Positions 1,170 to 45,610 of a stretch of 64,000 nt of DNA are shown piece by piece. Source of the stretch: Pecten maximus (taxonomy: Eukaryota); assembly GCF_902652985.1 (NCBI RefSeq), contig NC_047019.1, forward strand, positions 38,564,001-38,628,000, in the 5' to 3' direction. Both the position numbers and the translations under genes were made by a program. Position 1 is the first letter of the stretch, and each line of letters begins with the position of its first letter. The notes beneath the pieces are model-generated. The model searched no databases and was not told the DNA's origin. It saw nothing but the letters and a program-made list of their open reading frames with translations.

Positions 1170-1391
1170 TAACAGTTCAGTTATCTGGTTTTTCTTGCTA
1201 TTAAACACAATTTTACATCTTTAAAAATCAACTACGACGTACTTCGAGAATCATCTGCAGTCACAGAAATGAACAACAGAAGACAACTAAGGCTTCCATT
1301 CGTGAAAGGTACTTATCATATCTTACCAGTGAAATATAGATACATATGAATTCAAGAAAAAATGAATGGAATCTGAGAAATTCTTGGTAGA

Positions 1392-4300
1392 GTTATTGTT
1401 TGAATCCCGAGCCCGTGGTGTTGTTGTTTGGATTCCGAACTCGTAGGGTTGCTGTTTAAATTTCGAGCTCGTGGGGTTACTGTTTGGACTTCCGAACTCG
1501 TGGTGTTACTGTTTGGATTCCGAACTCGTGCTGTTACTGTTTAAATTCCGAACTCGTGGGGTTACTGTTTGGATTCCGAACTCGTGGGGTTACTGTTTGG
1601 ATTCCGAACTCGTGGTGTTACTGTTTAAATTCCAAACTCGTGGTGTTACTGTTTAAATTCCGAACTCGTGGGGTTACTGCTTGGATTCCGAACTCGTGGT
1701 GTTACTGTTTAAATTCCAAACTCGTGGTGTTACTGTTTGGATTCCGAACTCGTGTGGTTACTGTTTGGATTCCGAACTCGTCGGGTTACTGCTTTGATTC
1801 CGAACTCGTGGGGTTACTGCTTGGATTCCGAACTCGTGGGGTTACTGCTTTGATTCCGAACTCGTGGGGTTACTGTTTGGATTCCGAACTCGTGGCGTTA
1901 CTGTTTGGATTCCGAACTCGTGGGGTTACTGTGTGGATTCCGACCTCATGGTGTTACTGTTTAAATTCCGAATTCGTGGGGTTACTGCTTGGATTCCGAA
2001 CTCGCGGTATTACTGCTTGGATTCCGAACTCGTGGGGTTACTGCTTAGATTCCGAACTCGTGGGGTTACTGCTTGGATTCCGAACTCGTGGTATTACTGC
2101 TTGGATTCCGAACTCGTGGGGTTACTGTTTGGATTCCGAACTCGTGGGGTTACTGCTTGGATTCCGAACTCGTTTGGTTACTGCTTTGATTCCGAACTCG
2201 TGGGGTTACTGCTTGGATTCCGAACTCGTGGTGTTACTGTTTAAATTCCGAACTCGTGGGGTTACTGTTTGGATTCCGAACTCGTGGTGTTACTGTTTAA
2301 ATTCCGAACTCGTGGGGTTACTGCTTGGATTCCGAACTCGTGGTGTTACTGTTTGGATTCCGAACTCGTGGCGTTACTGCTTGGATTCCGAACTCGTGGG
2401 GTTACTGCTTGGATTCCGAACTCGTGGGGTTACTGTTTGGATTCCGACCTCGTGGTGTTACTGTTTGGATTCCGAACTCGTGGGGTTACTGTTTGGAGTC
2501 CGAACTCGTGTGGTTACTGTTTGGATTCCGAACTCGTGGGGTTACTGTTTGGATTCCGAACTCGTGGTGTTACTGTTTAAATTCCCGACTCGTGGGGTTA
2601 CTGTTTGGATTCTGGACTCGTGGTGTTACTGTTTAAATTCCGAAATCGTGGTGTTACTGTTTATATTCCGAACTCGTGGTGTTACTGTTTGGATTCCGAA
2701 CTCGTGGGGTTACTGTTTGGATTCCGAACTCGTGGTGTTACTGTTTAAATTCCGAAATCGTGGTGTTACTGTTTATATTCCGAACTCGTGGTGTTACTGT
2801 TTGGATTCCGAACTCGTGTGGTTACTGTTTGGATTCTGGACTCGTGGTGTTACTGTTTAAATTCCCGACTCGTGGGGTTACTGTTTAAATTTCCGACTCG
2901 TGGGGCTACTGTTTGGAGTCTGAACTCGTGGTGTTAGGCCGTTTGGATTCCGGACTCGTGGTGTTACTGTTTTTGGATTCCGAACTCGTGGGTTACTGTT
3001 TGGATTCCGAACTCGTGGGTTACTGTTTGATTCCGAACTCGTGGGGTTACTGCTTTGATTCCGAACTCGTGGGGGTTACTGTTTGATTCCGAACTCGTGG
3101 GGTTACTTGATTATCGTGGGGTACTGCGTTGATTCCGAACTCGTGGGGTTGATTCGAACTCGTGGGCTTTAAATTCCCGACTCGTGGGGTACTGTTTGGA
3201 TTCGGAACTCGTGGTTACTGTTTAAATTCCGAAATCGTGGTGTTACTTTTATTCCGAACGTGGTGTTACTGTTTGGATTCGCTGTGTGTTGGTTTGATGA
3301 CTCGTGGGTTACTGTTGGATTCGACTCGTGGTGTTACTGTTTAATTCCGACTCGTGGGTTACTGTTGGACTGACTGTGTGTAGTTGGATTCCGACTCGTG
3401 GTGTTACTGTTTAAATTCCGAACTGTGGGTACTGCTTGGATTCCGAACTCGTGGTGTACTGTTTATCCAAACTCGTGGTGTTTACTGTTTGGATTCCGAA
3501 CTCGTGTGGTTACTGTTTGGATTCCGAACTCGTGGGTTACTGCTTTGATTCCGAACTCGTGGGGTTACTGTTTGGATTCCGAACTCGTTGGGGTTACTGC
3601 TTGATTCCGAACTTCGTGGGTGTTACTGTGTTTGATTCCGAACTCGTGGGGTTACTGTTTGGATTCCGAACTCGTGGGTTACTGTTTGGATTCCGAACTC
3701 GTGGGGTTACTGTTGGATTCCGAACTCGTGGGTTACTGGTGGATTCCGAACTGTGGTTACTGTTGGATTACCGATTCGATGGGGTTTGTTTGGATTCCGA
3801 ACTCGTGGGGTTACTGTTGGATTCCGACCGTGGGTTACTGTAATTCGAACTCGTGGTTACGTTGGATCCGAACTCGCGTGTTACTGTTGGATTCCGAACT
3901 CGTGGGTTACTGTTGGTTCCGAACTCGTGGTTTTACTGCTTTGATTCCGAACTCGTGGGGTAACTTGCTTGGATTCCGAACTCGTGGTGTTACTGTTTAA
4001 ATTCCCGAGTACTGTTGGGTTACTGTTGGATTCCGAACTCGTGGTGGTTACTTGTTTAAATCTGGTAACTGTAGGGGTTACTGTTGGATTCCGAACTCGT
4101 GTGGTGTACTGTTTAATTCCGAACTCGTGGCTGTTACTGCTTGGATTCCGAACTGTGAGTTACGTGTGGTTCGAACTGTGGAGTTCGCTGGATACGAATC
4201 TGGGGAACTGTTGGATTCGGATCGGGGGTTTACTGTTTGGATTCCGACCTCGTGGTTACTGTTTGGATTCCGAACCGTTGTGGGATTGACTGTTGGGTCC

Positions 4301-7300
4301 GAACTCTGTGGTTAGACTGTTGATTCCGATCGTACTCGTGGGTTACTGTTTGGATTCCGAACTCGTGTTTTATACTGTTGGATTCCCGTGTGGGTTGTGT
4401 TGTTTGGATCGAATCGTGGTGTTTACTGTTGATTCCGAATCGTGGGTTACTGTTTTTTCCGAACTCGTGGGTTACTGTTGGATTCCGAACTCGGGTGTTA
4501 CTGTTTGTTTCCGAACCGTGGTGGGTTATGCTTGGAATCGAACTCGGGTATTACTGTTGGATGACTTGGGGTACTGCTTGATCGAACTCGTTTGGTACTG
4601 CTTTGATTCCGAACTCGTGGGGTTACTGCTTGGATTCCGAACTCGTGGTGTTACTGTTTAATTCCGAACTCGTGGGGTTACTGCTTGGATTCCGAACTCG
4701 TGGTGTTACTGTTTAAATTCCGAACTCGTGGGGTTACTGCTTGGATTCCGAACTCGTGGTGTTACTGTTTAAATTCCGAACTCGTGGGGTTACTGTTTGG
4801 ATTCCGAACTCGTGGTGTTACTGTTTAAATTCCGAACTCGTGGGGTTACTGCTTGGATTCCGAACTCGTGGTGTTACTGTTTGGATTCCGAACTCGTGGG
4901 GTTACTGCTTGGATTCCGAACTCGTGGGGTTACTGCTTGGATTCCGAACTCGTGGGGTTACTGTTTGGATTCCGACCTCGTGGTGTTACTGTTTGGATTC
5001 CGAACTCGTGGGGTTACTGTTTGGAGTCCGAACTCGTGTGGTTACTGTTTGGATTCCGAACTCGTGGGGTTACTGTTTGGATTCCGAACTCGTGGTGTTA
5101 CTGTTTAAATTCCCGACTCGTGGGGTTACTGTTTGGATTCTGGACTCGTGGTGTTACTGTTTAAATTCCGAAATCGTGGTGTTACTGTTTATATTCCGAA
5201 CTCGTGGTGTTACTGTTTGGATTCCGAACTCGTGGGGTTACTGTTTGGATTCCGAACTCGTGGTGTTACTGTTTAAATTCCGAACTCGTGGGGTTACTGG
5301 TTATATTCCGAACTCGTGGTGTTACTGTTTGGATTCCGAACTCGTGTGGTTACTGTTTGGATTCTGGACTCGTGGTGTTACTGTTTGGATTCTGGACTCG
5401 TGGTGTTACTGTTTAAATTCCCGACTCGTGGGGTTACTGTTTGGAGTCTGAACTCGTGGTGTTACCGTTTGGATTCCGGACTCGTGGTGTTACTGTTTAA
5501 ATTCCGAACTCGTGGGGTTACTGCTTGGATTCCGAACTCGTGGTGTTACTGTTTAAATTCCGAACTCGTGGGGTTACTGTTTGGATTCCGAACTCGTGGT
5601 GTTACTGTTTAAATTCCGAACTCGTGGGGTTACTGCTTGGATTCCGAACTCGTGGTGTTACTGTTTGGATTCCGAACTCGTGGGGTTACTGCTTGGATTC
5701 CGAACTCGTGGGGTTACAGCTTGGATTCCGAACTCGTGGGGTTACTGTTTGGATTCCGACCTCGTGGTGTTACTGTTTGGATTCCGAACTCGTGGGGTTA
5801 CTGTTTGGAGTCCGAACTCGTGTGGTTACTGTTTGGATTCCGAACTCGTGGGGTTACTGTTTGGATTCCGAACTCGTGGTGTTACTGTTTAAATTCCCGA
5901 CTCGTGGGGTAACTGTTTGGATTCTGGACTCGTGGTGTTACTGTTTAAATTCCGAAATCGTGGTGTTACTGTTTATATTCCGAACTCGTGGTGTTACTGT
6001 TTGGATTCCGAACTCGTGTGGTTACTGTTTGGATTCTGGACTCGTGGTGTTACTGTTTGGATTCTGGACTCGTGGTGTTACTGTTTAAATTCCCGACTCG
6101 TGGGGTTACTGTTTGGAGTCTGAACTCGTGGTGTTACCGTTTGGATTCCGGACTCGTGGGGTTACTGTTTAAATTCCGAACTCGTGGGGTTACTGTTGGA
6201 TTCCGAACTCGTGGTGTTTACTGTTTAAATTCCAACTCGTGGTGTTACTGTTTGGATTCCGAACCGTGTGGTTACTGTTTGGATTCCGAACTCGTCGGTT
6301 ACTGCTTTGATTCCGAACTCGTGGGGTTACTGTTTGGATTCCGAAATCGTACTGATTTTTTTTTTTTTGGATCCGAACTCGTGGGTTACTGCTTAGATTC
6401 CGAACTCGTGGGGTTACTGCTTTGGATTCCGAACTCGCGGTATTACTGTTTGATTCCGAACTCGTGGTGGTTTACTGCTTGATTCCGAACTCGTTTTGGT
6501 TTACTGCTTTTGATTGCCCGAACTCGTGGGGGTAACGAATGCTTGATTCCGAACTCGTGGTGTTACTGTTTTAAATTCCCGAACTCGTGGGGTTCGGTTA
6601 CTGCTTGGCATTCCGTAACTCGTGGTCTAGTTTGTGTTACTGTTTTAAATTCCGAACTCGTGGGGTTACTGTTTGGATTCCGAACTCGTGGTGTTACTGT
6701 TTAAATTCCGAACTCGTGGCGTTACTGCTTGGATTCCGAACTCGTGATGTTACTGTTTGGATTCCGAACTCGTGGGGTTACTGCTTGGATTCCGAACTCG
6801 TGGGGTTACTGCTTGGATTCCGAACTCGTGGGGTTACTGTTTGGATTCCGACCTCGTGGTGTTACTGTTTGGATTCCGAACTCGTGGGGTTACTGTTTGG
6901 AGTCCGAACTCGTGTGGTTACTGTTTGGATTCCGAACTCGTGGGGTTACTGTTTGGATTCCGAACTCGTGGTGTTACTGTTTAAATTCCCGACTCGTGGG
7001 GTTACTGTTTGGATTCTGGACTCGTGGTGTTACTGTTTAAATTCCGAAATCGTGGTGTTACTGTTTATATTCCGAACTCGTGGTGTTACTGTTTGGATTC
7101 CGAACTCGTGGGGTTACTGTTTGGATTCCGAACTCGTGGTGTTACTGTTTAAATTCCGAACTCGTGGTGTTACTGTTTGGATTCCGAACTCGTGGTGTTA
7201 CTGTTTGGATTCCGAACTCGTGTGGTTACTGTTTGGATTCTGGACTCGTGGTGTTACTGTTTGGATTCTGGACTCGTGGTGTTACTGTTTAAATTCCCGA

Positions 7301-10232
7301 CTCGTGGGGTTACTGTTTGGAGTCTGAACTCGTGGTGTTACCGTTTGGATTCCGGACTCGTGGTGTTACTGTTTAAATTCCGAACTCGTGGGGTTACTGT
7401 TTGGATTCCGAACTCGTGGTGTTACTGTTTAAATTCCAAACTCGTGGTGTTACTGTTTGGATTCCGAACTCGTGTGGTTACTGTTTGGATTCCGAACTCG
7501 TCGGGTTACTGCTTTGATTCCGAACTCGTGGGGTTACTGTTTGGATTCCGAACTCGTGGGGTTGCTGCTTGGATTCCGAACTCCTTGTGTTACTGCTTTG
7601 ATTCCGAACTCATGGGGTTACTGCTTTGATTCCGAACTCGTGGGGTTACTGTTTGGATTCCGAACTCGTGGCGTTACTGTTTGGATTCCGAACTCGTGGG
7701 GTTAGTGTTTGGATTCCGAACTCGTGGGGTTACTGTGTGGATTCCGAACTCATGGTGTTACTGTTTAAATTCCGAACTCGTGGGGTTACTGCTTGGATTC
7801 CGAACTCGCGGTATTACTGCTTGGATTCCGAACTCGTGGGGTTACTGCTTAGATTCCGAACTCGTGGCGTTACTGCTTGGATTCCGAACTCGCGGTATTA
7901 CTGTTTGGATTCCGAACTCGTGGGGTTACTGCTTGGATTCCGAACTCGTTTGGTTACTGCTTTGATTCCGAACTCGTGGGGTTACTGCTTGGATTCCGAA
8001 CTCGTGGTGTTACTGTTTAAATTCCGAACTCGTGGGGTTACTGCTTGGATTCCGAACTCGTGGTGTTACTGTTTAAATTCTGAACTCGTGGTGTTACTGT
8101 TTGGATTCCGAACTCGTGGGGTTACTGCTTGGATTCCGAACTCGTGGGGTTACTGCTTGGATTCCGAACTCGTGGGGTTACTGTTTGGATTCCGACCTCG
8201 TGGGGTTACTGTTTGGATTCCGAACTCGTGGGGTTACTGTTTGGATTCCGAACTCGTGTGGTTACTGTTTGGATTCCGAACTCGTGGGGTTACTGTTTGG
8301 ATTCCGAACTCGTGGTGTTACTGTTTAAATTCCCGACTCGTGGGGTTACTGTTTGGATTCTGGACTCGTGGTGTTACTGTTTAAATTCCGAAATCGTGGT
8401 GTTACTGTTTATATTCCGAACTCGTGGTGTTACTGTTTGGATTCCGAACTCGTGGGGTTACTGTTTGGATTCCGAACTCGTGGTGTTACTGTTTAAATTC
8501 CGAAATCGTGGTGTTACTGTTTATATTCCGAACTCGTGGTGTTACTGTTTGGATTCCGAACTCGTGTGGTTACTGTTTGGATTCTGGACTCGTGGTGTTA
8601 CTGTTTGGATTCTGGACTCGTGGTGTTACTGTTTAAATTCCCGACTCGTGGGGTTACTGTTTGGAGTCTGAACTCGTGGTGTTACCGTTTGGATTCCGGA
8701 CTCGTGGTGTTACTGTTTAAATTCCGAACTCGTGGGGTTACTGTTTGGATTCCGAACTCGTGGTGTTACTGTTTAAATTCCAAACTCGTGGTGTTACTGT
8801 TTGGATTCCGAACTCGTGTGGTTACTGTTTGGATTCCGAACTCGTCGGGTTACTGCTTTGATTCCGAACTCGTGGGGTTACTGTTTGGATTCCGAACTCG
8901 TGGGGTTGCTGCTTGGATTCCGAACTCCTTGTGTTACTGCTTTGATTCCGAACTCGTGGGGTTACTGCTTTGATTCCGAACTCGTGGGGTTACTGTTTGG
9001 ATTCCGAACTCGTGGCGTTACTGTTTGGATTCCGAACTCGTGGGGTTAGTGTTTGGATTCCGAACTCGTGGGGTTACTGTGTGGATTCCGAACTCATGGT
9101 GTTACTGTTTAAATTCCGAACTCGTGGGGTTACTGCTTGGATTCCGAACTCGCGGTATTACTGCTTGGATTCCGAACTCGTGGGGTTACTGCTTAGATTC
9201 CGAACTCGTGGCGTTACTGCTTGGATTCCGAACTCGCGGTATTACTGTTTGGATTCCGAACTCGTGGGGTTACTGCTTGGATTCCGAACTCGTTTGGTTA
9301 CTGCTTTGATTCCGAACTCGTGGGGTTACTGCTTGGATTCCGAACTCGTGGTGTTACTGTTTAAATTCCGAACTCGTGGGGTTACTGCTTGGATTCCGAA
9401 CTCGTGGTGTTACTGTTTAAATTCTGAACTCGTGGTGTTACTGTTTGGATTCCGAACTCGTGGGGTTACTGCTTGGATTCCGAACTCGTGGGGTTACTGC
9501 TTGGATTCCGAACTCGTGGGGTTACTGTTTGGATTCCGACCTCGTGGGGTTACTGTTTGGATTCCGAACTCGTGGGGTTACTGTTTGGATTCCGAACTCG
9601 TGTGGTTACTGTTTGGATTCCGAACTCGTGGGGTTACTGTTTGGATTCCGAACTCGTGGTGTTACTGTTTAAATTCCCGACTCGTGGGGTTGCTGTTTGG
9701 ATTCTGGACTCGTGGTGTTTCTGTTTAAATTCCGAAATCGTGGTGTTACTGTTTATATTCCGAACTCGTGGTGTTACTGTTTATATTCCGAACTCGTGGG
9801 GTTACTGTTTGGATTCCGAACTCGTGGTGTTACTGTTTAAATTCCGAAATCGTGGTGTTACTGTTTATATTCCGAACTCGTGGTGTTACTGTTTGGATTC
9901 CGAACTCGTGTGGTTACTGTTTGGATTCTGGACTCGTGGTGTTACTGTTTGGATTCTGGACTCGTGGTGTAACTGTTTAAATTCCCGACTCGTGGGGTTA
10001 CTGTTTGGAGTCTGAACTCGTGGTGTTACCGTTTGGATTCCGGACTCGTGGTGTTACTGTTTAAATTCCGAACTCGTGGGGTTACTGTTTGGATTCCGGA
10101 CTCGTGGTGTTACTGTTTGGATTCTGGACTCATGGTGTTACTGTTTAAATTCCAAACTCGTGGGATTGCTGTTTGGATTCCGAACTCGTGGTGTTACTGT
10201 TTAAATTCCGAACTCGTGGGGTTACTGTTTGG
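1392..10232. repeat. 28-bp satellite array (~8.8 kb, ~315 units) with higher-order repeats
   Basis: Consensus GTTACTGTTTGGATTCCGAACTCGTGGG. A diagnostic variant (GGAGTCTGAA) recurs at 2915, 5443, 6115, 7319, 8663 and 10007. Confidence 0.99.
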
Positions 10233-13490: not shown

Positions 13491-13544
13491 GTTCTGTATA
13501 GAAACCACACAGTAGATAGTCATTCCCAAGGTATATAGGGAGAA

Positions 13545-14527
13545 AGTCCTCAGGGGAGTGCATGAAGATGTCGGTCATCAGGGACGTGACCGTACAAACT
13601 GGTTGGCAAGGCGTATGTTTTTCTGTCCCGGTCTTGATGCCGAGGTAAATAGTTGGGTTGAAAGCTGTGGTGGGTGCATTCGTAGAAAAACCCTACAGTC
13701 CCAAGGGCGGAGTTGGTTAACATCCAAAGTTCCCGTCCAATGGAACTACTTTGCATTGACTGGACCTAAGAAAGGTCACAGGGTGGCTACGAAAACGTGC
13801 TGGTTATCACTGACCATTTCACCCGCTATGCCCAAGCAATTCCAACCAGGAACCAGTTAGCGAGTACCACCACAAGGGTGTTGTACGAGCAATTTATTGT
13901 CCACTACAGCTTTCCTGCCTGAATTCACAGCGACCAGGGCATGGATTTTGAAAGGGTAGAGAAGCTACACTAGAAGTAGGTGGCCGGGTTCTGATGAGGA
14001 ACGTTGGTTTATGTGGCAAGCAAAATTGGCAGACAAATGAGCTAAGGATCTTGATATGCCCGTATACAAGATCCAGAAAGAGTCTGGAAAGGGACCTATA
14101 CAAACTACATAGGAGCCTACTTCTCCCTTTCATGTGGCTACCAAGAACATATGGTGCCCATGAATCAAGGGAGACAACCCGAAAACATCGGAACACCTGA
14201 GAGTTCCTCCTCAACTACCGACTCTGATAGCTCAGATGAGGATGGGAGTCAAGCACCCATATATAATATTCCTGCTAGGAGACCCAGACGCACTGTAGCT
14301 GATTCGCGACAGCCAGTACAAACATATTCTGTTGGTACAAGGGATTCTCCGAAAGGGAGTAAGAAGGGTCAGTGTCGAAATCTTGACACTGCAGGCAGTG
14401 ATTCTCAGATACATGACTTATTACCAGCTTAAAGTCCCAACCGAGCTGGCAAGTCTCCGAACATGTATGGAGAATGGCTCATGGGAACCTTGGTACCATC
14501 CAATTCTGGAGCTGAGAAGTGGGAGAA
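13545..14527 (+). pseudogene. Ty3/Gypsy pol remnant: integrase H2C2 zinc finger, partial rve core and C-terminal region; frameshifted and internally deleted
   Basis: HEDVGHQGRDRT...VESCGGCIRRK is the HHCC finger. Other frames give RPMELLCID, GGYENVLVITDHFTRYAQAIPTRNQ and IHSDQG, followed by LEVGGRVLMRNVGL. A polypurine tract GAGAAGTGGGAGAA lies at 14514-14527. Confidence 0.92.
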
Positions 14528-15638
14528 TGTCGTAGTGAGCAAAGTTAACTCCTGATTGTGAAACTAATAATATTTAATCTCTTCAGCTATTTGTATGTAC
14601 TGTCTTATGGCTTACCATTATAATAGTAGAGCTGTAGCATAATTGTAATTTACATTCAATTATCCGATAAGTCAGATTGATAATCACATCAGGAAAACTT
14701 TGTTTCACAGGGCAGAGGAGAAATTCTGAAACTCTCAATTATTAGTCAGATAGTGTACTTAGTATATTACCTTGGAACACTGGCCAAGGTGATAATTACA
14801 ATTTATCTAGATAACAAATTTAATTTCAAACTATACCATATGAGCAGTTATCTTTGATTCCTTGTAGGTAGGGATCGCCCCAATCACTTGGATATATGAT
14901 AATTAGCTGCTCATTGATACTCATTTGTACATAATTTTATTGTTTGTTAGATTCAACCATTATGGTTGATATTGGTTTAAATGCCAGGAGTAATTTTCCT
15001 TTGCACGGGAGAATGTCGCGATGTTCAAACTTTATATGTTAAAGTTTGACATATTGTTTAGGTATTTTAAATAGGATTGTGTGTTCAAAATACTTGCGCT
15101 GTGTATTGTGTATAGTTTGTACAAGTCCCTGTGTCAATTGATGTCTATTGTACCCGTGTATATAGTTATAGTTGTGACGTGTGAGAGATGAGTGAAATGA
15201 TTGGTTGAGATTGACACTTTGGCCCTGCATTACCCCGCGCATACCCGTGCACGTGCAAGGCCTTGCCGGACCCTGTCAAGGTAAGGCCAAACCACACCAC
15301 GCTATAAGACCTGCACGGATAGAGACGTCCCGTAAAAACCTGTGTGCCTTACAGCCACAGTGTTAAAAAGGTAAGAGTATTTAAACATAAAATATATAAA
15401 CGAAATTTTTAATCTAATAAAACTATTTACTTTAGATGATATATACATTAATTAAAATATTTAAGGTATTGTTCTTTTTGTTTCAGGTTGTTGTCTCCGT
15501 TCTGTTTAGTACTGTTAACGTTGTATATAATAAAAGGTACTCGTGAATATAACTAGCGTCTTGGAGCCTTTATTGAATAGTCCTCAGAATCATAACCCAC
15601 AGAGATATATACAGATATGTCTTATGTTCTCTGTAACA
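14528..15638 (+). mobile_element. 3' LTR of the Gypsy element (3' boundary approximate, 15601-15638)
   Basis: Starts TGTCGTAG immediately after the polypurine tract and has AATAAA near 15529. Roughly the first 850 bp align to the inverted copy ending at 36132. Confidence 0.82.
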
Positions 15639-26940: not shown

Positions 26941-28219
26941 TACAAGCTAACCGGTAATAAGTATTTACATATTAATGTATTTAAAATGTTGCCGTATCCG
27001 TAAAGAATATAGAAAAACAAATATTGTGACCGGTAGCATTGTGTTTTAATACTTTTTCATCTAGGGAAAGCATGGTCTTTCATTGATATGTCACACGAGT
27101 ATTTTAAATGTGTGGGTTTTTTCCTTGAAATTATGCACAAACAATGTCTGACAATTATGCACACAGTTTATTAAACATAAACAGACACACGCGGAGACAT
27201 TGACCTGAAATAAAAAGAACAATACATGTACCTAGAATACATACGGACACGTGTAAGCGATGCCTATAATTACATTATTTAATACTGAACGCATTAAATA
27301 TTCATTTAGGTATATTTTATATGCTTATTTTATATCCTATTTTATTTCATAGTTACACTTTTAACAATATACATTATTTTTACACTAACTTTGACCCTAT
27401 GGAGCCCGACCACGTGTATGTAGCAATAACAGGCTATTTTTTTTAATTATAGGAAACATTTCAGGAAAATGTGTTTATTGTTATATTTCAATTCAATATA
27501 ATTGTAACAAGAAATATCTTTAAAAAGATAAACGGATTAGTTTTAATGCTGGTTGTTATCATGTAAAACTGATGGTGAAATAAATTAACGAACTAAAGTG
27601 TTTTAGCACGAATAACTAAATCATATCAGTTTGAATCATTTTTGGTAATAATAAGACTGCATTTGAATCAGGAATATAGTTTTATTAATGTGTCCTTTAA
27701 AAAGATAATCTACTTATTCAGTTTGCATTCAATCTTATCTTTGTTTCGTTTTTAGCTGCATACCTGCATTTTGCATTTACCGCTACATTGACCAATCACA
27801 TGCTTCATCTTGACCAGTAACGCCACCTGTAGCGTCATATCCGGGGCCAAAAGAAAATTATACAGCCGACAATTGGCAGAAATATTATAGGAAACACGAT
27901 TGGACGAATTCGCCTTCAAGGAAACTATTTGTTTCAAGATTTTTGTCAGGATAATGTTAGTCCCTTTACCAATTTTCCTATCTCCATGGCTTTGTTGTAC
28001 AACTAATGTGCTTTGTTCTTGCTCATTCAGCTCATCATGTATTATTTGTGTATTTAGAACTTAATATCATATATATATAAGTTTTATATTCCTTCACAGT
28101 TACATTCTAGACACTGTCGATCATTTTTGAAGAGTGACAATGAAGCTACGTTGTGTATACCAGAAACATTCAATGTAGTATCTTCCCTACATTCTGGATT
28201 ATATGTATTAGCGGGCTAT

Positions 28220-29785
28220 TTACTCCATCAGTGGCATAAACTTGGTTGGTCGAAGTGGTTTTCGAGACTGACTATGGACATAGACCCCAAGGTAGAAGAG
28301 AACACTGGCGATATGAGCACACATACCAACAGTCCTCTGACCGGTTGGACACATACAGTAGTAATTCTGTATTGGTGGTTGTTCGGTAACTGAGTACTGG
28401 ATCCATATGTTGTGTTTCGTTTGCGATTTATGACGAGATCGGATTTGACATCGAATCGGGTCAGAAGAGTGTTAGTATGCCATGACTTCATAATCTCCAT
28501 CTGCTGTCAAATGTTCCGATATGTATCCGGGGCCCAACTTCAGCTGGTACGTCCCACATGCCAGAGTTTCTAGATATTCTTGGTCAAGACGTGGAACTCG
28601 AGCTGGGCTGCCTCTAGCTTCTGCCATTGGGATTTGGCTCTCCGTGATAGGTCTGGCTCTTTCTCAACACGCTCTGCTACGATGTTGAACTTGTTTAGAA
28701 GTGACTTCATCTCCAGAGCAACTTTTTCATCTTCGGCTGCTTTTGTTGATGAAGGCTGATATATGGGTCCACGTAGCCAATTCAGACATGCCGTGACACT
28801 TTTCAGAAGACTTTCGAGATTTTTGATGAAGTAGTTTGATGTGAGTTCAGTTTAAAAAAAATCTGAATTGCTTGAAACGAGAGTGATAACTTTCGAACAC
28901 CCATCTTGTTTTAGTGATACACCTGTCTGTGTTTGCCTCTATACCATCATGTTGACTTTGTCCAGGTTTGAGAAATGTCGGCAAGTGAGTCTCGTATCCC
29001 TCGTCTGATAGTTTGCTCAAAATGTCTCGGAAACCCCTGTCTACAATTACCTGATCATCTTCCTCTAGGATACCTGACAGACTTTGTAATGAGGTAAGTA
29101 TCTTGTCAGTGATTTTGGCGTCATTATCACTACCAGGAAATGGGCCGACAGTGTCTAGAACGTAACCGTTAGGGAACACAATACTCATAAACTTCACGTA
29201 GTTGCGGTTTTTTTTTCGACCGCAGTAACTTTTCCGCTGAAACTCTTGTTCTTCACTTTTGTCGATATATATATATGTACCATCCAATATTACAGTGACT
29301 TTGTTGCCGAAGAATGTTTTTGTTTTTACCAAGAAGATGACTTGAACACACCCTGGAATTCCCAGGCATGTACAGTTTATGTTTGATAAGCAGCTGGTGT
29401 CTTGCTTTCTTACTGATGCAGCTAGAACTCTTCATGTTGTAAGTTCGACAAATGCTACACTTTCTGTTTGAAGAAGGGGCATAGTATAAATCATCTACAG
29501 AAAGATACCCGTCCAGAGTGTCAGATTCGTCAATAGAATCGTCATTGTCTACGTAAGCTTTTTTCCGTTCCGGTTCATTGGCATTCTCGGATGCAGGACG
29601 TTTCTTGAGGTATCTGAGAAAGCATTTTGGACATATCTTTGCTTCTGTTGATTCAGAAAGTATGACACCTTCAGAAAGGAGACCATCTTTCATCCAGTCC
29701 TGAATTTTTCGCGGATTTTTACCATCGCCAACCTGGTTGTACTTGAACTTAACTTACATCCCAACCCAACACAGGAGTTCTCCAT
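28220..29785 (-). pseudogene. DDE_Tnp_4-type (PIF/Harbinger/ISL2EU clan) transposase with C-terminal SWIM zinc finger; frameshifted, HTH region deleted
   Basis: Catalytic motifs VILDGTYIYI, VIVDRGFRD and KTRWVFESYHSRFK. Hand translation downstream gives ACGTYQLK, RSRHKSQTKHNIWIQY and YYCMCPTGQRTVGMCAHIASVLFYLG (CxC..CxH, SWIM), with a stop at 28220-28222. The N-terminus is Cys-rich from the ATG at 29785. There are several frameshifts and one internal stop. Confidence 0.9.
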
Positions 29786-30700
29786 TTTCCTATTTAAGAC
29801 AAAGACAACTTTACTACAGAAGAACTGAACTAAATAGAATTGTAAAACGTAACAGCAATTATAACAACATGCCGAGCACCATTCGCGGTGAGTAGTCAAA
29901 AGACCAAGTGGCAAACGGAACTTTTGTGTGGCACACCCCAACGGAGGAGAAGCTTTGAAGAAGTACTGAGGACGAAGATGGTCAAGTGAGAAAAATGATG
30001 AATCATACGTAATACGGAACTACTATAAGTATGTTAAACATAGTAGAACATAATACATTGCCATGGACATTGTATCAAATCATTTTCATAATAAATCAAT
30101 AGGTTGTATTATTGTGTACGACAAGGACCACTTGTATCGCCCGTGCATTTTTTCCACATACATTTTTCAACATTGAATTACTGCCCTTATCCAGTGATTC
30201 GGTACGACTTTCTTTTGCTGGTATACAGAGGGATAGTCAAATATGTTTTTAAAACACTAACATTTGATTTTAAAAATGGTATTTTGAATTTGATGAAAAT
30301 TTTCCAATTTTGGTTTTCTACGTCATCTTGTACTAAACTCGTTTGTTTTTTCCTGGTCAACTGTTTATCATTTTAAACTGCAATGTATGTACAATACCTA
30401 GTCGTGAGAAAACCTCTTAGTGACAAACAGAAATACCACTTATGAGTCTGTGAAAAGCACAGGTATGCCTGTACACGAAAAAGTGAAGTAGATGGCGCTA
30501 TGGGCGCGCTTATGGGTCAAGTGGAAAATAACATCTTGTTCCATTAGAGGGACAGTTTGTTAAATCCCTTCCACACAAGAAATTATTTTTCCAGGCGCTT
30601 TATATCAACAAAAGTTTGATAATTTCTGAAATAGCCCCGCCACGTTTCCATCATACTAATGAAAACTTTCCGCATCCATAAAGAAATATTGCAATAACCA

Positions 30701-33700
30701 TCAACAGCCAGGGTACATATATATCTGTTGAGATACCTGCGATCTCACGTGTCCATCATACCACTGATTTTGTTCATCTATCACAAACTTATGTCGCACG
30801 TCTTTCCCAATGAGCGAAAGTCTTTCAGCTCCAGATCTTTTACTACTAGTCTCACTCGGCAACGTAAATGACTCCAGAATTAGGGTTTTCACATTTTCTG
30901 CCATTTCGTTCCAAGACAAGTCTTTCCTTTTCTTATTCACAGATTTGCTGAAATTGTATATTTTCGGGTTGTTGCTTGTTTGTCTTAGAATATTTTTACG
31001 GAATCTCATTTGTGACTTCAGAGCATCAAGTTTTTCTTTATCCTTCATCGTTGCCAGCATTACATCCACTTGTTTGACTGTCTGCCAAAGTCCCCAAAAC
31101 AGAATGTCATTAGTTTGAAGAAGATTTTCTGCTTCCTTCCTTCTTCTTGCATCTTGATTTTTTTAAGTTTCTCTTGTAGAACCGCTTCTTTCTTCTGAAC
31201 TATTTTGTCTCTGCGTGCCTTATACAATTCTCTTGTTCTAGCTACATTATTGTATGCATCCTCTAGTTGTCTGTTCACTTCTTCATTGTCCTTACTTTCC
31301 AGCCATGATTGTCTTATTTATTGAGAACATAACATAAGCTTCTGCTGAGAGTGTTTTTATATGAGGTTTACACCTCATAAGGCCATCCAAACATGCAAAA
31401 ACAGACTCGCTGAATTTATTGTGCTTGGCTACACTTTTTGTGGTTTCCTTCAATTCTTCGCTTGGGTTTGCAAACTTACCACCAGGTAGATGGTCTCGAA
31501 AATGATTCTTCGCTAGTTTGGCGATTGCAGGAAGAATAATTCCAAGGATTGTACATGTCTCTCCATCATATTGCGATGGTGTAATGAGCTTCTCATATAC
31601 TTTGTCTCTTTTCACATATGTATCCTCCCCAAAAGGTAAAATTTGTCCACTCAGAAATGTTGTTAATTGCAAATAGTGCCTATTCATATCAATTATATGA
31701 ATTTCCTTATTCTCTATCAAATTCCATAGGGGAGAGGTTACAAGTTTACAAATCAATCCAAGAGCTTTGCATCCAGCAATAAAGAAAGAAGTATTCAGGT
31801 CATGTAGACCCACTGGTTGGATCCATGGTCTTTGAGTCATGGAAAAAATACACCACGCCTGCATTATGAAACAGGATGTTAAATCGATTTCCCTTGAATG
31901 GTGTAAGAGGAAGACTCTGCATTCCATTTTCTTTTAGGAAGTCCTTAATGTATGTCATAAAAGGGCCGTGACATCCTGATTTGGCATCACCGTTGTAAGA
32001 AAATGCTTTACAACATGTTCGTATTAATCTCAAAGTCCCTGATTCTAAGCTCTTCTGGAATTTCTTGTTGAAAATAGGAACATCTTCATTGAAATTTGTC
32101 TTTTCGACCTCCAGAATGGATTGGTTAACTTCGGCAATATGAACAAGAGAGTGAAGGCCACAGAAAAATTTATTCAAGCGTGACAAAACATTTCTGTCCT
32201 CTTCATCTAAGTCATTCCAATCTTGCACCATTTCGGGAAGAACTTCACATCGGTACGTTTCCAATAACTGATTGAATTTCATTTCTGTTGCCGCACGGTC
32301 AGACATAGTGTTACGAATATGAAACAACATGTCTTGAGAAGTTAAACTCTGCGTATTGTAGTACCTCTGATCTAAATCAAACATAATCTCTTTAAAGGCC
32401 TGTAATGTATCCTTTCCTGATTTAGTTACAACTTCTCTCAATCCCAAAACATTCGGATTTCCGTCAGAGTCTCTAACAGCATACACACCAAACTTCGTAC
32501 CAAATTTAGATGTTTCATCAGTCTCTATTGTGGTATTCTCTTGGATTTTTCTGCTTGTCTTTCAAGCGGCAATTTTGTTGTTCGGCTGAAGATTAGTCAA
32601 TTCCTGTTCAGTCAAATCATGATTTCCAGAGGAATCAATGGAATATGACGGCAGAAGGAACTCTCCTTGCAAAAATTCGTTGTAATAGTCAACATTTCTT
32701 TTTTTTTCAATTTGGCATTAGTTTCGGCAATCCTTTTTACCTTCTTACAGTAAGAGTTCAACTTCAGCGACACATTGCTTATCTGTTTTACCTTTTCCAG
32801 TAAATCTGTTGCAACTTCTTTTATAATTTTTTTTTCAATCATTGAAATTATGTCACTGTTTTTCATATCAAATGACATTGTCTTTCTCCTCTATCACTGA
32901 CTCCGAAAGTAATAATTGTTTGAGTTGATTTATCTAGATCGTCACAATCTACTAGCTTATTTCCAGTGTAAATATCACAAGAAAATAGCTGTATATGACC
33001 GTTTATGTATGTCTGAGAATGATTATGAGATGTACCTGATAAAGTTATAGATGTTCCCAGCTCTGGTGTAGCTCCTTGTGGATCTGAAATAAACAAACAG
33101 TTTATTACTTATCAAAGTAGAAAAGAAATTTGTGAAAAATTAGAGTTATTGAAAAAAAGGCTCCAATTTTCATAAATTATGTTTTAGTTGTAGTATTACC
33201 TTGTAATAATTTCTTTCTTGGTTTCTTCTGCAATAGGCTTGTACTGGGTGTGCATTCAACTTCCGACTTGGATTCCAACTTTTCTACAATATGCAAAGAT
33301 AACTGCAAATAGAGAAAAAAATATCAAATGTAACATATATTTCATGCATGGAAGCAGTAGAATATGAAGATTTAAGATATGATGATTTCATCATAACATA
33401 AATACCTTGCTTTCCAAGTACTTGCAAGATAATTTCCGACATACATGTTCATTGATTTGCAACACGTAAATAACATAATTTTTGTATTCCCCTTGAAATT
33501 AATCTTCTTTGCCAAATTCAAGTTTCCTTGCTTTTTTGTGATACTTAAATATCCTGGTAAACTGATGAATGCCTCTGATATTCATGGAACCTCTCATGAA
33601 TTAATGTTATACAAGGTTCATATGCACAAATAGATTAAATGGACAACTTGGTTTCCTACAATGCATATACATTTTTAAGAATAACATTTGAAAAAAATGG

Positions 33701-34660
33701 TAAATGCTGTAAGTCCTAACCCTTTTTAGTTGCAATCTTTTCACAGTGATCTTTTCTGGGGTGGGAGTGGTAATGTCACTGTCGCTGTCACTATCTTGTG
33801 ATTCTGATGGGCTGAAACAAAGATCAAGTTGTTAAAAAAAAAAAAAAAAAAATGGCATACATATTTCAGTAAGTTCATATCATCATTTACTTTTGTTGGA
33901 GTTCTATACTAAACATCTCTTTTGAATCCTGGATTAAAACATTATACTGTAATTATACCATTATTTAATACTGCATTCAGTCCTGTAAATATGCACACAA
34001 GGCAAAAATAAAAGAGAATGTTTTGTGTTCCATTTCACTTTCAGCAACAATGTCATTTCTTCCTAGTATAATGATTTTTATAATACATGGTGAATATATT
34101 TAATTTTCAAGAAAATTTACAATAGTTAAAGAAAACATTGAACACTTAATATCTTACCTTTCAATCCATGACGATATATCTTCTCCACAGTAGATTCTTG
34201 ACATTATCACTCACAGCATGCTAGTTCAATACTATACAGTGTATATAAAATGTTCATGAAGTACAATCGAATGACATCGTTGAAATGTTACTGTTTTGTC
34301 AAAGCCTACACTGGCAGTCTGGTGAAATTTCTCGTTCTCTGTATGAAAATGGAAATATATTTGATTATTGAATTGATTTCTTTGTGAAAAAAATGTGTCA
34401 TGTGCAATCTGAATCTACATTTAAATTAAAGAACATACTGTTATATTATAACCATCCATAACAACTAGTGATCACCACTCAAATTGACCACTTTTTTGTG
34501 TAACAACGCTAGATTCATAGGCCTACCGTACGTTTCTATATTCTATAAGTAGTAAACTTCGACTACTTGATTAGAGTTATCCCTCCTTCGAAAATCATGG
34601 CGAATTATTTCAGTGTGGAATACTCTTCTTCTTTGACCCTGCGCACGGTTGCGCTTCATT
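30701..34660 (-). pseudogene. Intron-containing DDE transposase with a CxxH motif (hAT/MULE/P-like clan) and a C-terminal Spin/Ssty-like domain; disrupted
   Basis: Successive minus ORFs give TIETDETSKFG (D1, ~32518), NTMSDRAATEMKFN (D2), FFCGLH (CxxH), GNRFNILF and KHNKFSESVFACLD..R.KP (E), then a coiled region and LIGKDVRHKF...WYDGHVRSQ. Minus-strand splice donors (TACC/TTACC on +) occur at ~33197, ~33403 and ~34154. The 5' limit is uncertain. Confidence 0.78.
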
Positions 34661-35229
34661 CTAAAGTTTTGACAGTGAAGTTTTCTGAAAGAAAAGTGCC
34701 CTAGGTTTCATAATATCACTGTCAAGGGGTGTCACAAAGGGTAAGTAAGGAAATATTAACGATTATTATCGGTACCTCGTCTCTCCGCTCCAGTTTCAGT
34801 TGCCAAACTATTTTCTATTCTGGTTTACCACATGGTTAGATATTGCTTTGCATTCCTATTAGTCAAAACACACAATTGATTCCGATTAACACGTGTCTTT
34901 ATATATATATTAGGCCTCTTTTGCTATCACATGGCTACCAAAATGGTAGCGATGACGCCATATTTACGCTGTGGGAGGCTATGAATAAAGGCGTTTTTGC
35001 TGAAGAAAAACATCGATAAACGTTATAATCATATGAAAGACAAGTAGAACATACTTTATTGTGATTGCTGTGTAGTGAAAATAGAAAGAACGACAGTTAT
35101 AGCCGATAAACATGGAATTCAATTATGACCTATTTAACACGGGACATAATGGGAAAGTGCCATAACTTGCGTATAGTCTAGTATGCCTGTCATTGCTAGT
35201 GTATGTCCTATGTTAAATATTTTAACATT

Positions 35230-36132
35230 AAGGGCAAGATATTTAAAAAGCAAATATATTAGTTTAATGTATTTTATCTATATCAAATACATATAGCTAA
35301 AACATATTAAATAATGTATTTATATTATTTTAAGTTAAATAAACTTACCTTGAAGCACTGTGGCCGTAAAGCACACAGGCTTATACAGAACGTGTATGTG
35401 GGTGCAGGGTCTATAGCCGTTGTGGCTGCACTCACCTGGGCAAGGCCCAGGTAAGGTTTTCCACGTGCACAGGTATAGGGTCATGCAGGGTCAAAGTGAC
35501 ACACTCAACCAATCCTTGCGCTCACCTCTCTAACGTCACAATAACAACTATGACACAGGGACTTGTACAAACATTATACACGATACACAGCGCAAGTATC
35601 TATATACACCTTACATTTACAGGTGTTGGTTAGACTATTATTAAAGTTTGACCACCGTGACATTCCCCCCTGCAAAGGAAAATGACTCCTTGCATTTAAA
35701 CTAATATCAACCATAATGGTTGAATCTACTAATAATATAAAAGAATGAGCAGCTAATTATCTAATATCCAAGTGATTGGAACAATCCCTACCTACAAGGC
35801 ATAACAGATAACTGCTCATATAACACTATAGAAAGAAAAATCTAAAATTAAAAACCTGTAGAAATTGAAATTATCACCTTGGCCAGTGTCCCAAGGTAAT
35901 ATAATAATATATACTACAACTACTTAGAGGAATTTCAGATTTTCTCATCTGCCATGTGGAACAAAGCTTTCCTGATGTGAATATTAATCTTTTACTTGAT
36001 AATTGAATGTAAATTACAATTATGCTACAGTTTCTACTTATTTAATGGTAAACCATAAGGTATTACACACAATTAGCTGTAGATATTAAATATTAATTTC
36101 ACAATTTGAAGTAAACTTTGTCCACCACGACA
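35230..36132 (-). mobile_element. Diverged inverted copy of the Gypsy LTR (solo or partial; may extend to ~34970)
   Basis: The reverse complement starts TGTCGTGGTGGACAAAGTTTAC, versus TGTCGTAGTGAGCAAAGTTAAC at 14528. Collinear blocks are shared, e.g. AGATTCAACCATTATGGTTGATATT and CACTGGCCAAGGTGATAAT. Confidence 0.85.
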
Positions 36133-43794: not shown

Positions 43795-45610
43795 ATGTAT
43801 CAGTTCGTGTCTGACGGAGACTTTAAACACCTAATACACTACCGTTCCCACAAAGACAGATAGGTGTGTAGTTGCGGGTTATAAATTTGTTTTTAGGAGA
43901 GAAATTAAAACCAAAAAGAGAATAAAACTTCATAAGCAAAAAATTGGTTGCTAGATGTTTTAAAGCAGATGGCAATTATTTGACTTATGATCAATAGATT
44001 GGCATGTGTGCGAAGTGTTTAAAAAGAAATATCAGAAACGAAAGCCTTAACCTGTAGATCAAAACGTTGGTGTTGATGATGAAACGTGGCGGAACATTCC
44101 ATTATTATCCGTAGAGGATTTTTATGACATGTCTTCCCCTGCCAAATACACGCTATGTATGAAGGGTTTCAATCAAAATCCATCCTTTTTGCCTAAGCGC
44201 ACAACACACCAATTGTAGTATCCTTGGTCCTCATGTATTTGGTCTCATTATCTCATAGGGAAATACCCTGACGCACTGATGAATGAGAAATTCCTAGCTA
44301 CATTCCAGATCAAAGGAAATCATCAATGGTTTTCTGGAGATATCACATATGCTATAAAAGTCTTCATTTACTTTGCATTTTTACTATCTGGATGATGCAA
44401 CTTGTCAAGCCTGGACAGGCTAGACAAGAACAAAGTTTTTAGAAAGTCTTTCACATTGTTCGTCCTCTGTTGACACTGACACCCCGAGGACTCACTACTG
44501 TTAAACATGTTGCTCTTGGTAAACGTGAAGACGACAAACGGGCAAGCGGACGACTGCTATAACTGACGGTAGATACACCTTTATGTCTAAGAGTTCTGAT
44601 CACAAGCTCCAGAGAATTCCTACTGTGGCTAGATGAAGCGGAACTACTTGAAGTTCATGAGCATAGCTCTGTCTGATGGTTACAGTCTGGACAAAGTAGG
44701 ACTTTTTCCTGGAAGCGATAATGATGCGAGGATTACAAAAGACATCATGGATAGTATCTCATGGCTGGAGAAAGATGACAATGTCATTGCTGTTCGAGAG
44801 TTGAAGGATGCTTTGTCAGATTTAGAATCGCGCACGCGGTTTGACAACAAGGATATCGTCTTATGTGACGACATGCAAGGTAACCTTGGTAGAGCCATAA
44901 CTAAATCCAGATGGGTAGTGGAGTCATATCACGGACGATTCAAGCAAAGGCAGGTTTTCAAAACACAGCTTGCCTCTAATTATTTCATTGATGTCTTCGA
45001 AGCATTCGTTAGAAAAGCAACAGTCTGTCTCAATGGAATCCGATGACCCATATTTGTAAGAACACCAGAGCGAGGAGCAAAGGATAGGGCACTTGTTGAC
45101 AAAAGGAAAGCGCGCCTTAGTGTTCACAATATCTTAGCTCAGCTTGTGCAAGATAAATCAGATCTTCCCTGAAGGGCCAAGTCACTATTTGTCAAACTAG
45201 ATGCGACTGCGGATAATTGTGACTTTCCAAATTTAGACATATAATACATTCGGACAATATCCTGTGGCACATACTTAATGCCACTGGCAGCTGGCCACGT
45301 CAGTACGCGTACTTCAGTGACAATGGTGACTAAACGATCTGGAACTATCGGTACTCACGGGACAATGTACGATGTCAGATCCACTCCAGGCGTAGAAGGT
45401 GTAAAGTACAATGTTTGGATCCAACATGGTAGCTCCGACAATCTTAATAACATAAAGGATCATTATTGCTAGTGTCCTACGATACAGGGAACCATAGGAG
45501 TATGTGCTCACGTAACTAGTACCCTTTAATGTTTAGGATACTACATGCATTTGGAAACCAGTAAGCCTTTGCATCAAAACGTCAGAAGGTTTAAGACAAA
45601 CCTCAAGTAA
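43795..45610 (+). pseudogene. Second, more decayed DDE_Tnp_4+SWIM transposase
   Basis: RNYLKFMSIALSDGYSLDKVGLFPGSDNDARIT, ITKSRWVVESYHGRFKQ, SCGTY, VKYNVWIQ and HYC*CPTIQGTIGVCAHVTSTL align motif by motif with the 28-kb copy. The stop is at 45608-45610; the 5' limit is approximate. Confidence 0.85.

Follow-up and report, generated by a model that had tools for sequence, protein, structure and literature searches.

The chromodomain of chromovirus integrases and the PHD finger of RAG2, which partners the DDE enzyme RAG1, are histone readers that act where the reaction takes place. The transposase described here resembles both in joining a reader to a DDE enzyme; it differs from the chromovirus case in the reader fold and in that the latter is a retrotransposon, and from the RAG case in the fold and in that RAG2 is a separate subunit. 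Among DNA transposons, hAT transposases have a CxxH motif after the second catalytic Asp and carry an RW motif, MULE/Mutator elements have an IS256-type core, a 9-bp target duplication and long inverted repeats, and P elements combine a THAP domain with a P-type core. Classical hATs are described as bearing the PF05699 dimerisation domain and a BED finger, and the hAT target duplication as usually 8 bp (8-9 bp in hATm), with hAT5 an exception at 5 bp. As for the reader, repeat 2 of Spindlin1 is reported to bind H3K4me3 via an aromatic cage (F141, W151, Y170, Y177), while E142, D189 and D184 anchor A1 and R2 of H3, and the Spin/Ssty family is there stated to be vertebrate-conserved (PMC3967050). 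Spindlin has itself been linked to mobile DNA: it is reported to silence young transposons in mammals, SPIN1 recognising them via H3K4me3 plus H3K9me3 (bioRxiv 10.64898/2026.08.20.746118).

The window is a 64,000-nucleotide stretch of Pecten maximus DNA (contig C5, 38564001-38628000), and the genome searched for relatives comprises 918 Mb. Positions 27421-35198 (minus strand) are a decayed copy of a cut-and-paste DNA transposon, here family A, 7778 bp long including a foreign insert. The copy was delimited by end-to-end homology, spanning 27420 to 35201, to a sister copy with an intact transposase gene (G000:C3553:22348-29599). Its 14-bp terminal inverted repeats, TAGCAAT(G/A)ACAGGC, start at 27421 and 35198; placed by the sister homology, the 5' repeat is TAGCAATGACAGGC (35185-35198, minus) and the 3' repeat is TAGCAATAACAGGC (27421-27434, plus), the two matching at 13/14 positions. 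A 7-bp target duplication, GTGTATG on the plus strand, lies immediately outside them at 27414-27420 and 35199-35205. The sister has a different duplication, GTGACAG, and flanks unlike those of the window copy, so the two are separate insertions.

The transposase's main coding exon, now disrupted, occupies 30737-32878 (minus; limits from the sister alignment), with its ATG at 32878, upstream of the gene start in an earlier note made from the letters of this DNA. It encodes an N-terminal coiled coil (mostly deleted), the DDE core, a linker and the first half of a Spin domain. The earlier note had read a disrupted minus-strand gene with four motifs, and all four are present on that strand: TDETSK with the first catalytic Asp (32505-32522), MSDRA with the second (32292-32306), the CxxH motif CGLH (32151-32162) and NKFSESVF with the catalytic Glu (31397-31420). 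To these we add an RFN motif, NRFN (31878-31889, minus). Across 65 aligned homologues the first Asp is found in 63 and falls in gaps in 2, while the second Asp, the C and H of CxxH, the R, F and N of RFN, and the E and F of the Glu motif are invariant in 65/65. The disruption was confirmed against the intact sister: over 2175 aligned bases there are 54 substitutions, 2 in-frame deletions and 7 frameshifts before the donor, 4 of these within 30737-32530.

The exon ends as had been claimed, in LIGKDVRHKF...WYDGHVRSQ at 30814-30737 (minus), followed by GT. This terminal piece is the first half of the Spin/Ssty domain and includes the positions matching Spindlin1 F141 and W151. The GT donor and first 10 intron bases, in phase 0, are at 30727-30736 (minus), where homology to the sister stops. 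From there a foreign stretch (27863-30726, minus), which includes a PIF/Harbinger-type element present in many copies (DDE_Tnp_4 at 28850-29428, E 1.8e-13; ~40 genome matches at 86-98%), has replaced 769 bp of the family A element, namely the remainder of the intron together with the last Spin exon, which accounts for the second half of the domain being absent from the window, as the earlier note had said. The non-coding 3' end of the transposon resumes at 27435-27862 (minus), 92-97% identical to the sister copy. Frameshifted, and having lost the exon that would supply the cage's second half, the window copy is functionally dead.

Elsewhere in the window are a second, weak DDE fragment (44633-45046), a tandem array of a 28-bp unit (1350-10200), an inverted repeat pair of ~650 bp, 81-100% alike in pieces (14568-15235 and 35478-36095), and a retroelement-like fragment (13516-13860).

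What the window copy has lost can be read from its sister. There a 532-nt GT..AG intron opens at the predicted CAG|GT and ends in TTTCAG, and the exon after it, VPGFCDWYNVKY...DLIIKV*, completes the Spin/Ssty domain; the spliced protein has 962 aa and reaches 87 bits with the domain profile, versus 20 bits unspliced. The intron and the domain-completing exon support the proposed CAG|GT as a probable donor. The sister's last exon was also found independently with the intronless domain of a second family, B, as protein query (E 2.6e-7). Many homologues stop after SQV, the same break as the intron position, and the database record of the sister lacks the second half domain because it was read into the intron. 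The domain profile matches 28 of 80 metagenome loci, 4 of them with both halves and GT/AG at this position and many others intronless. Among the joints listed for 4 RNA runs there is no contig bridging the Spin intron of family A, and no RNA record among those listed comes from the family A gene. Database names such as 'SPIN3-like protein' on bivalve transposases (records looked at: P0052, P0067, P0001) are explained by the Spin/Ssty domain that rides on them.

Taken alone, the half domain in the window matches nothing in Pfam at E<=1, as might be expected if its likeness to Spindlin were due to chance, or to recent capture of a host Spindlin exon by one copy. Against a profile of 14 homologous complete domains, from which the window copy and its sister were excluded, it is the sole match in six frames of the window (14.1 bits, E 9.8e-6); 20 block shuffles of window 10001-64000 reach -0.7 bits at best. 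PF02513 is found above its curated cut-off in 8 of the 16 homologues scanned (27.5 bits in family B), and this genome has 11 matches, 8 above cut-off. A profile of 13 transposon domains, run against a structure bank, retrieves all 17 Spindlin sequences (E<=2e-31; next E 0.17), with 66 bits for Spindlin repeat 2, 41 for repeat 1 and 19 for repeat 3. Residues 964-1034 of an AlphaFold model of the family B transposase match Spindlin-4 (Z 9.7, rmsd 2.6, 69 aligned). The claimed Spin/Ssty motif is upheld by the PF02513 matches, the Spindlin retrieval, the Spindlin-4 fold match and the cage residues, and the alternative that intact homologues lack a Spin/Tudor fold or aromatic cage is contradicted by that Z score and by the cage. 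From sequence and model, then, the reading of the transposase tail as a true Spin/Ssty domain with a predicted aromatic cage is supported.

The likeness is to repeat 2 of Spindlins 1-4 (PF02513; 4MZG, 4UY4, 5A1H), in sequence, predicted fold, cage and acidic anchors. Spindlin differs in having three repeats in a host protein, versus one (in a few cases two) on a transposase, and its W151 is usually Y or F in the transposon domains. The common motifs of the latter are divided: VP and KYD are shared with repeat 1, W and L.DY..GDL with repeat 2, so that in VPG and KYD the transposon domain looks closer to repeat 1. Cage residues were counted in the 174 complete domains among 233 profile matches. 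Four aromatics are present in 94/174 and three in 73/174; the Y170 position is kept in 172/174, D184 in 160/174 and D189 in 138/174, and 73/174 have all four aromatics and both Asp anchors, while the E142 equivalent is not conserved among the 174. Families A and B read F, Y, Y, Y, D, D at the cage and anchor positions. At least one cage aromatic is missing from 80/174 domains, and the Y177 position is L in 44/174, one large subgroup. Such incomplete cages, and the different small barrel in seven divergent members (below), would suit a tail that is a small beta-barrel for another ligand: piRNA-pathway methyl-arginine, a host cofactor, or else DNA, as with the SH3-type C-terminus of integrases. 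Repeat 3 of Spindlin is indeed reported to bind proteins, not histones (bioRxiv 10.64898/2026.08.20.746118). Given that the best match is to repeat 2, that the anchors D184 and D189, specific to the H3 N-terminus, are kept, and that full cage and both anchors coincide in the 73 domains counted above, we consider another ligand distinctly improbable.

The enzyme that carries the tail is predicted to be Hermes-like. The family B model (mean pLDDT 84) has Hermes as its best match (Z 16.2, rmsd 4.1, 345 aligned residues), the alignment extending to Hermes residue 609; the top 10 Foldseek rows are Hermes chains, and lesser matches are ISCth4 (Z 10.2) and P transposase (Z 9.1). An RNase H fold in the N-terminal part is thus predicted, in line with the DDE reading of the earlier note, and fold, copies and termini together contradict the possibility that this part lacks such a fold and is a single-copy sequence without termini. 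The likeness to Hermes (PDB 8EDG, 4D1Q) includes, beyond the fold, D-D-E, CxxH, a helical insertion and short terminal inverted repeats. The differences are a 7-bp rather than 8-bp duplication, a length of ~960-1030 aa that includes a long coiled coil, 10% identity, an extra linker and Spin domain, and the lack of any PF05699 or BED match in 48 proteins (16 at E<=1 and 32 at E<=0.01). Where hAT transposases have RW this family has RFN, which we take to be its counterpart.

We therefore file the transposase as hAT-like and outside the classical hATs (Ac, Buster, Tip, hATm, hATx), since no dimerisation or BED profile matches it and its target duplication has 7 bp instead of 8. The superfamily, which the earlier note had left unassigned, is in this way narrowed to hAT-like, with classical hAT features partly absent. 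MULE/Mutator was rejected (the ISCth4 match is below that of Hermes, and a 9-bp duplication fits 0/25 copies), as was the P element superfamily (no THAP or P-transposase Pfam match, and the lower P transposase Z). The 7-bp-TSD hAT families of Repbase are presumably the hATw subgroup, to which our family, with its own 7-bp duplication, possibly belongs. Repbase does contain hAT families labelled '7-bp TSD' (PMC4455052), and the label hAT-hATw has been applied to amphioxus and Hydra repeats; neither a definition of hATw nor a link of hATw to a Spin domain was found in those parts of the literature that were searched.

Mobility is recorded in the genome itself. The family A 5' end finds 36 matches, and of 28 further loci examined 19 have both ends, all of them non-coding derivatives of 1.2-2.2 kb. 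Family B, 7.16 kb long, has a transposase ~32% identical to that of family A and terminal inverted repeats of 13 rather than 14 bp, with ends TAGC(G/A)ATGCCAAA; its 4 copies are ~99% alike in unrelated flanks, and the family is shown to have been recently mobile. Exact 7-bp target duplications flank 18/25 paired copies (21/25 at <=1 mismatch), and duplications of 5, 6, 8 or 9 bp fit 0/25; the consensus is C-W-W-W-W-W-G, and the 7-bp rule is that of this one genome. Among metagenome loci, of which 32/80 were scanned on contigs mostly too short for the purpose, repeat-plus-duplication pairs were not above a swapped control. Contigs of 4/4 public runs join the flanks of a family B copy, skipping 7168 bases that equal the element plus one 7-mer; the flank looks repetitive, so what the contigs show may be a second copy of the target, not an allele lacking the element. 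The claimed cut-and-paste family is supported by its termini, 7-bp duplications and many copies, and the intact copies, inverted repeats, target duplications and last exon that the earlier note proposed to seek were all found.

The tail is a regular part of this enzyme. When proteins of >=900 aa were retrieved by the catalytic piece alone, 56/58 had the domain, either complete or as its first half (hand count). Mean identity across 54 full-length members is 37% in the Spin domain, 36% in the first RNase H part, 29% in the linker and 17% in the N-terminus; by this measure the Spin domain and the catalytic core are equally conserved. Removal of 49 truncated proteins from 211 with a near-complete core left 162, of which 142 have a Spin domain (one repeat in 139, two in 3), 7 another small barrel and 13 neither. 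Since 20/162 complete-tail members do without it, the Spin domain is dispensable in some lineages. Identity with Spindlin proteins, which would be expected to show three tandem repeats and no transposase, was rejected, 139/142 being single-repeat transposases. Two tandem Spin-like repeats are seen in P0095, P0117 and P0268, and a weak second repeat in P0115 and P0118. Members with the domain occur throughout the tree built from the 162 cores, some with an intron splitting it and others without; being midpoint-rooted with weak deep nodes and drawn from a sample partly chosen by Spin-containing profiles, this FastTree tree is silent on gain versus loss.

The Spin domain has named hosts among bivalves, gastropods and sea urchins; in a hemichordate member the tail is the other barrel. 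No three-repeat Spindlin host gene was found in this genome, a count that is a lower bound in that intron-split genes may escape the search. Chance likeness, or capture of a host exon by one copy, is scarcely credible alongside these hosts and this gene count, and is refuted by the PF02513 matches, the 56/58 carriage, the Spindlin retrieval and the spread over the tree. The family is invertebrate and numbers 1,809 clusters at 50% identity (E<=1e-30); in an atlas comparison the best scores were <=0.83, leads at most. New matches of the domain profile have the core or linker of this transposase in 96/107 cases, and the remaining 11 appear on inspection to be fragments or products of internal deletion. 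At L051:1500-1674 and L052:1500-1659 (both minus) there is a Spin-like domain (27 bits) with neither core nor linker of this family; upstream of it in L052 is a fragment whose motif we take to be YqaJ-like, and L052 is perhaps another transposon bearing a Spin domain. The other barrel has the motif VAVAFENTWY.G...F.WP (P0303, P0310, P0311, P0316, P0319, P0337, P0339; L009, L010). In the 7 divergent members it is weakly similar to Agenet (E 2e-4), and its structural matches reach Z 4.3 at most, with chromo, Sm, KOW and integrase domains on a par. The presence of this other barrel suggests that the tail module was swapped.

Transcript-like contigs of family B come from two runs of one study, presumed to be RNA. 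In these contigs upstream exons are joined across a GT..AG intron, and a further skip of 4386 bases, running from AAG|GCAAGT to TTTCCAG|G (L083:2130-6517, contig C9), takes out the whole transposase frame. The splice-like ends of this skip suggest a GC-AG intron, and the family B transposase seems to sit within an intron of the transcript that the element itself makes; the skip may instead be an internal DNA deletion, and contig depth is not a basis for ranking isoforms. In both families the putative upstream exons, placed by splice signals in the window copy (32860-34340, minus; L083:1300-2310 in family B), have acidic and PPTP stretches. The upstream open frame extends as far as the transposase ATG and contains KSTQT..FG, which to us resembles a site for dynein light chain LC8; in the window copy this last open stretch ends ...KSTQTIITFG...CHLI*, overlapping that ATG. 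No start codon of the upstream frame was identified in families A and B.

For the intact transposase we lean, with somewhat more confidence than doubt, towards a Spin domain that acts in target choice by methyl-histone reading. The enzyme would cut and join by its D-D-E triad as Hermes does, with a 7-bp stagger, while the tail, on its long helical linker, would bind a methylated H3 tail, most likely H3K4me3. Binding by a single domain might be weak and that of several transposase subunits together strong; tethered in this way to marked nucleosomes at target choice, the transposase would insert with a bias towards marked chromatin. The window copy, frameshifted and without its last Spin exon, is incapable of such reading. 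Spindlin repeats are reported to pack into one globule (PMC3967050), so a lone Spin repeat may act differently.

Flanks of 1 kb showed no bias when 30 insertions were set against 39 arbitrary stretches: CpG observed/expected was 0.83 vs 0.78 (p=0.88) and GC was no different (p=0.27), with p=0.06 for GC at 300 bp; 5/28 loci had no usable flank, and two flanks were near-duplicates. Flank CpG is a blunt proxy, because CpG content does not tell promoters from unmethylated intergenic DNA, and selection clears promoter insertions. Flanks without CpG bias would also be expected of a reader that serves the donor side or regulation, recruiting the transposase to the element's own H3K4me3 copies, shielding these or repressing them, without steering insertion. 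Host SPIN1 offers a parallel in its recognition of young transposons (bioRxiv 10.64898/2026.08.20.746118). A family B splice that removes the transposase frame would likewise be a sign of self-regulation. The flank test is weak, however, and the chromovirus chromodomain and RAG2 PHD finger work at the reaction site; a donor-side or regulatory role is in our view possible, if rather unlikely.

A transposase-Spin/Ssty fusion was not described in those parts of the literature that were searched (including PMC12905397, PMC8721813, PMC6004678, PMC13465017 and PMC9004415; Repbase, Dfam, subscription journals and supplements aside), and on Spindlin evolution in invertebrates or amphioxus nothing was found in the literature searched. 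In this genome, 9/11 PF02513 matches lie inside transposon copies, and L226, a weak candidate for a host Spindlin, has no profile match. The Spin-profile protein search listed no vertebrate Spindlins and so cannot exclude invertebrate ones. The motifs that transposon domains share with Spindlin repeats would fit a split of the two before triplication, and two-repeat transposases exist; motif sharing, distribution and genome counts are compatible with descent in either direction. That an old animal transposon lineage has its own H3K4me3 reader, with vertebrate Spindlin a domesticated and triplicated tail, is a tentative idea that we would not at present expect to be borne out.

The presence of Spin/Ssty on a large invertebrate transposase family makes that family a candidate origin for Spindlin. 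If target choice by the tail is true, it would be a direct, testable case of a DNA transposon choosing its targets by chromatin mark, and the near-identical intact copies of family B are material for testing such a built-in reader.
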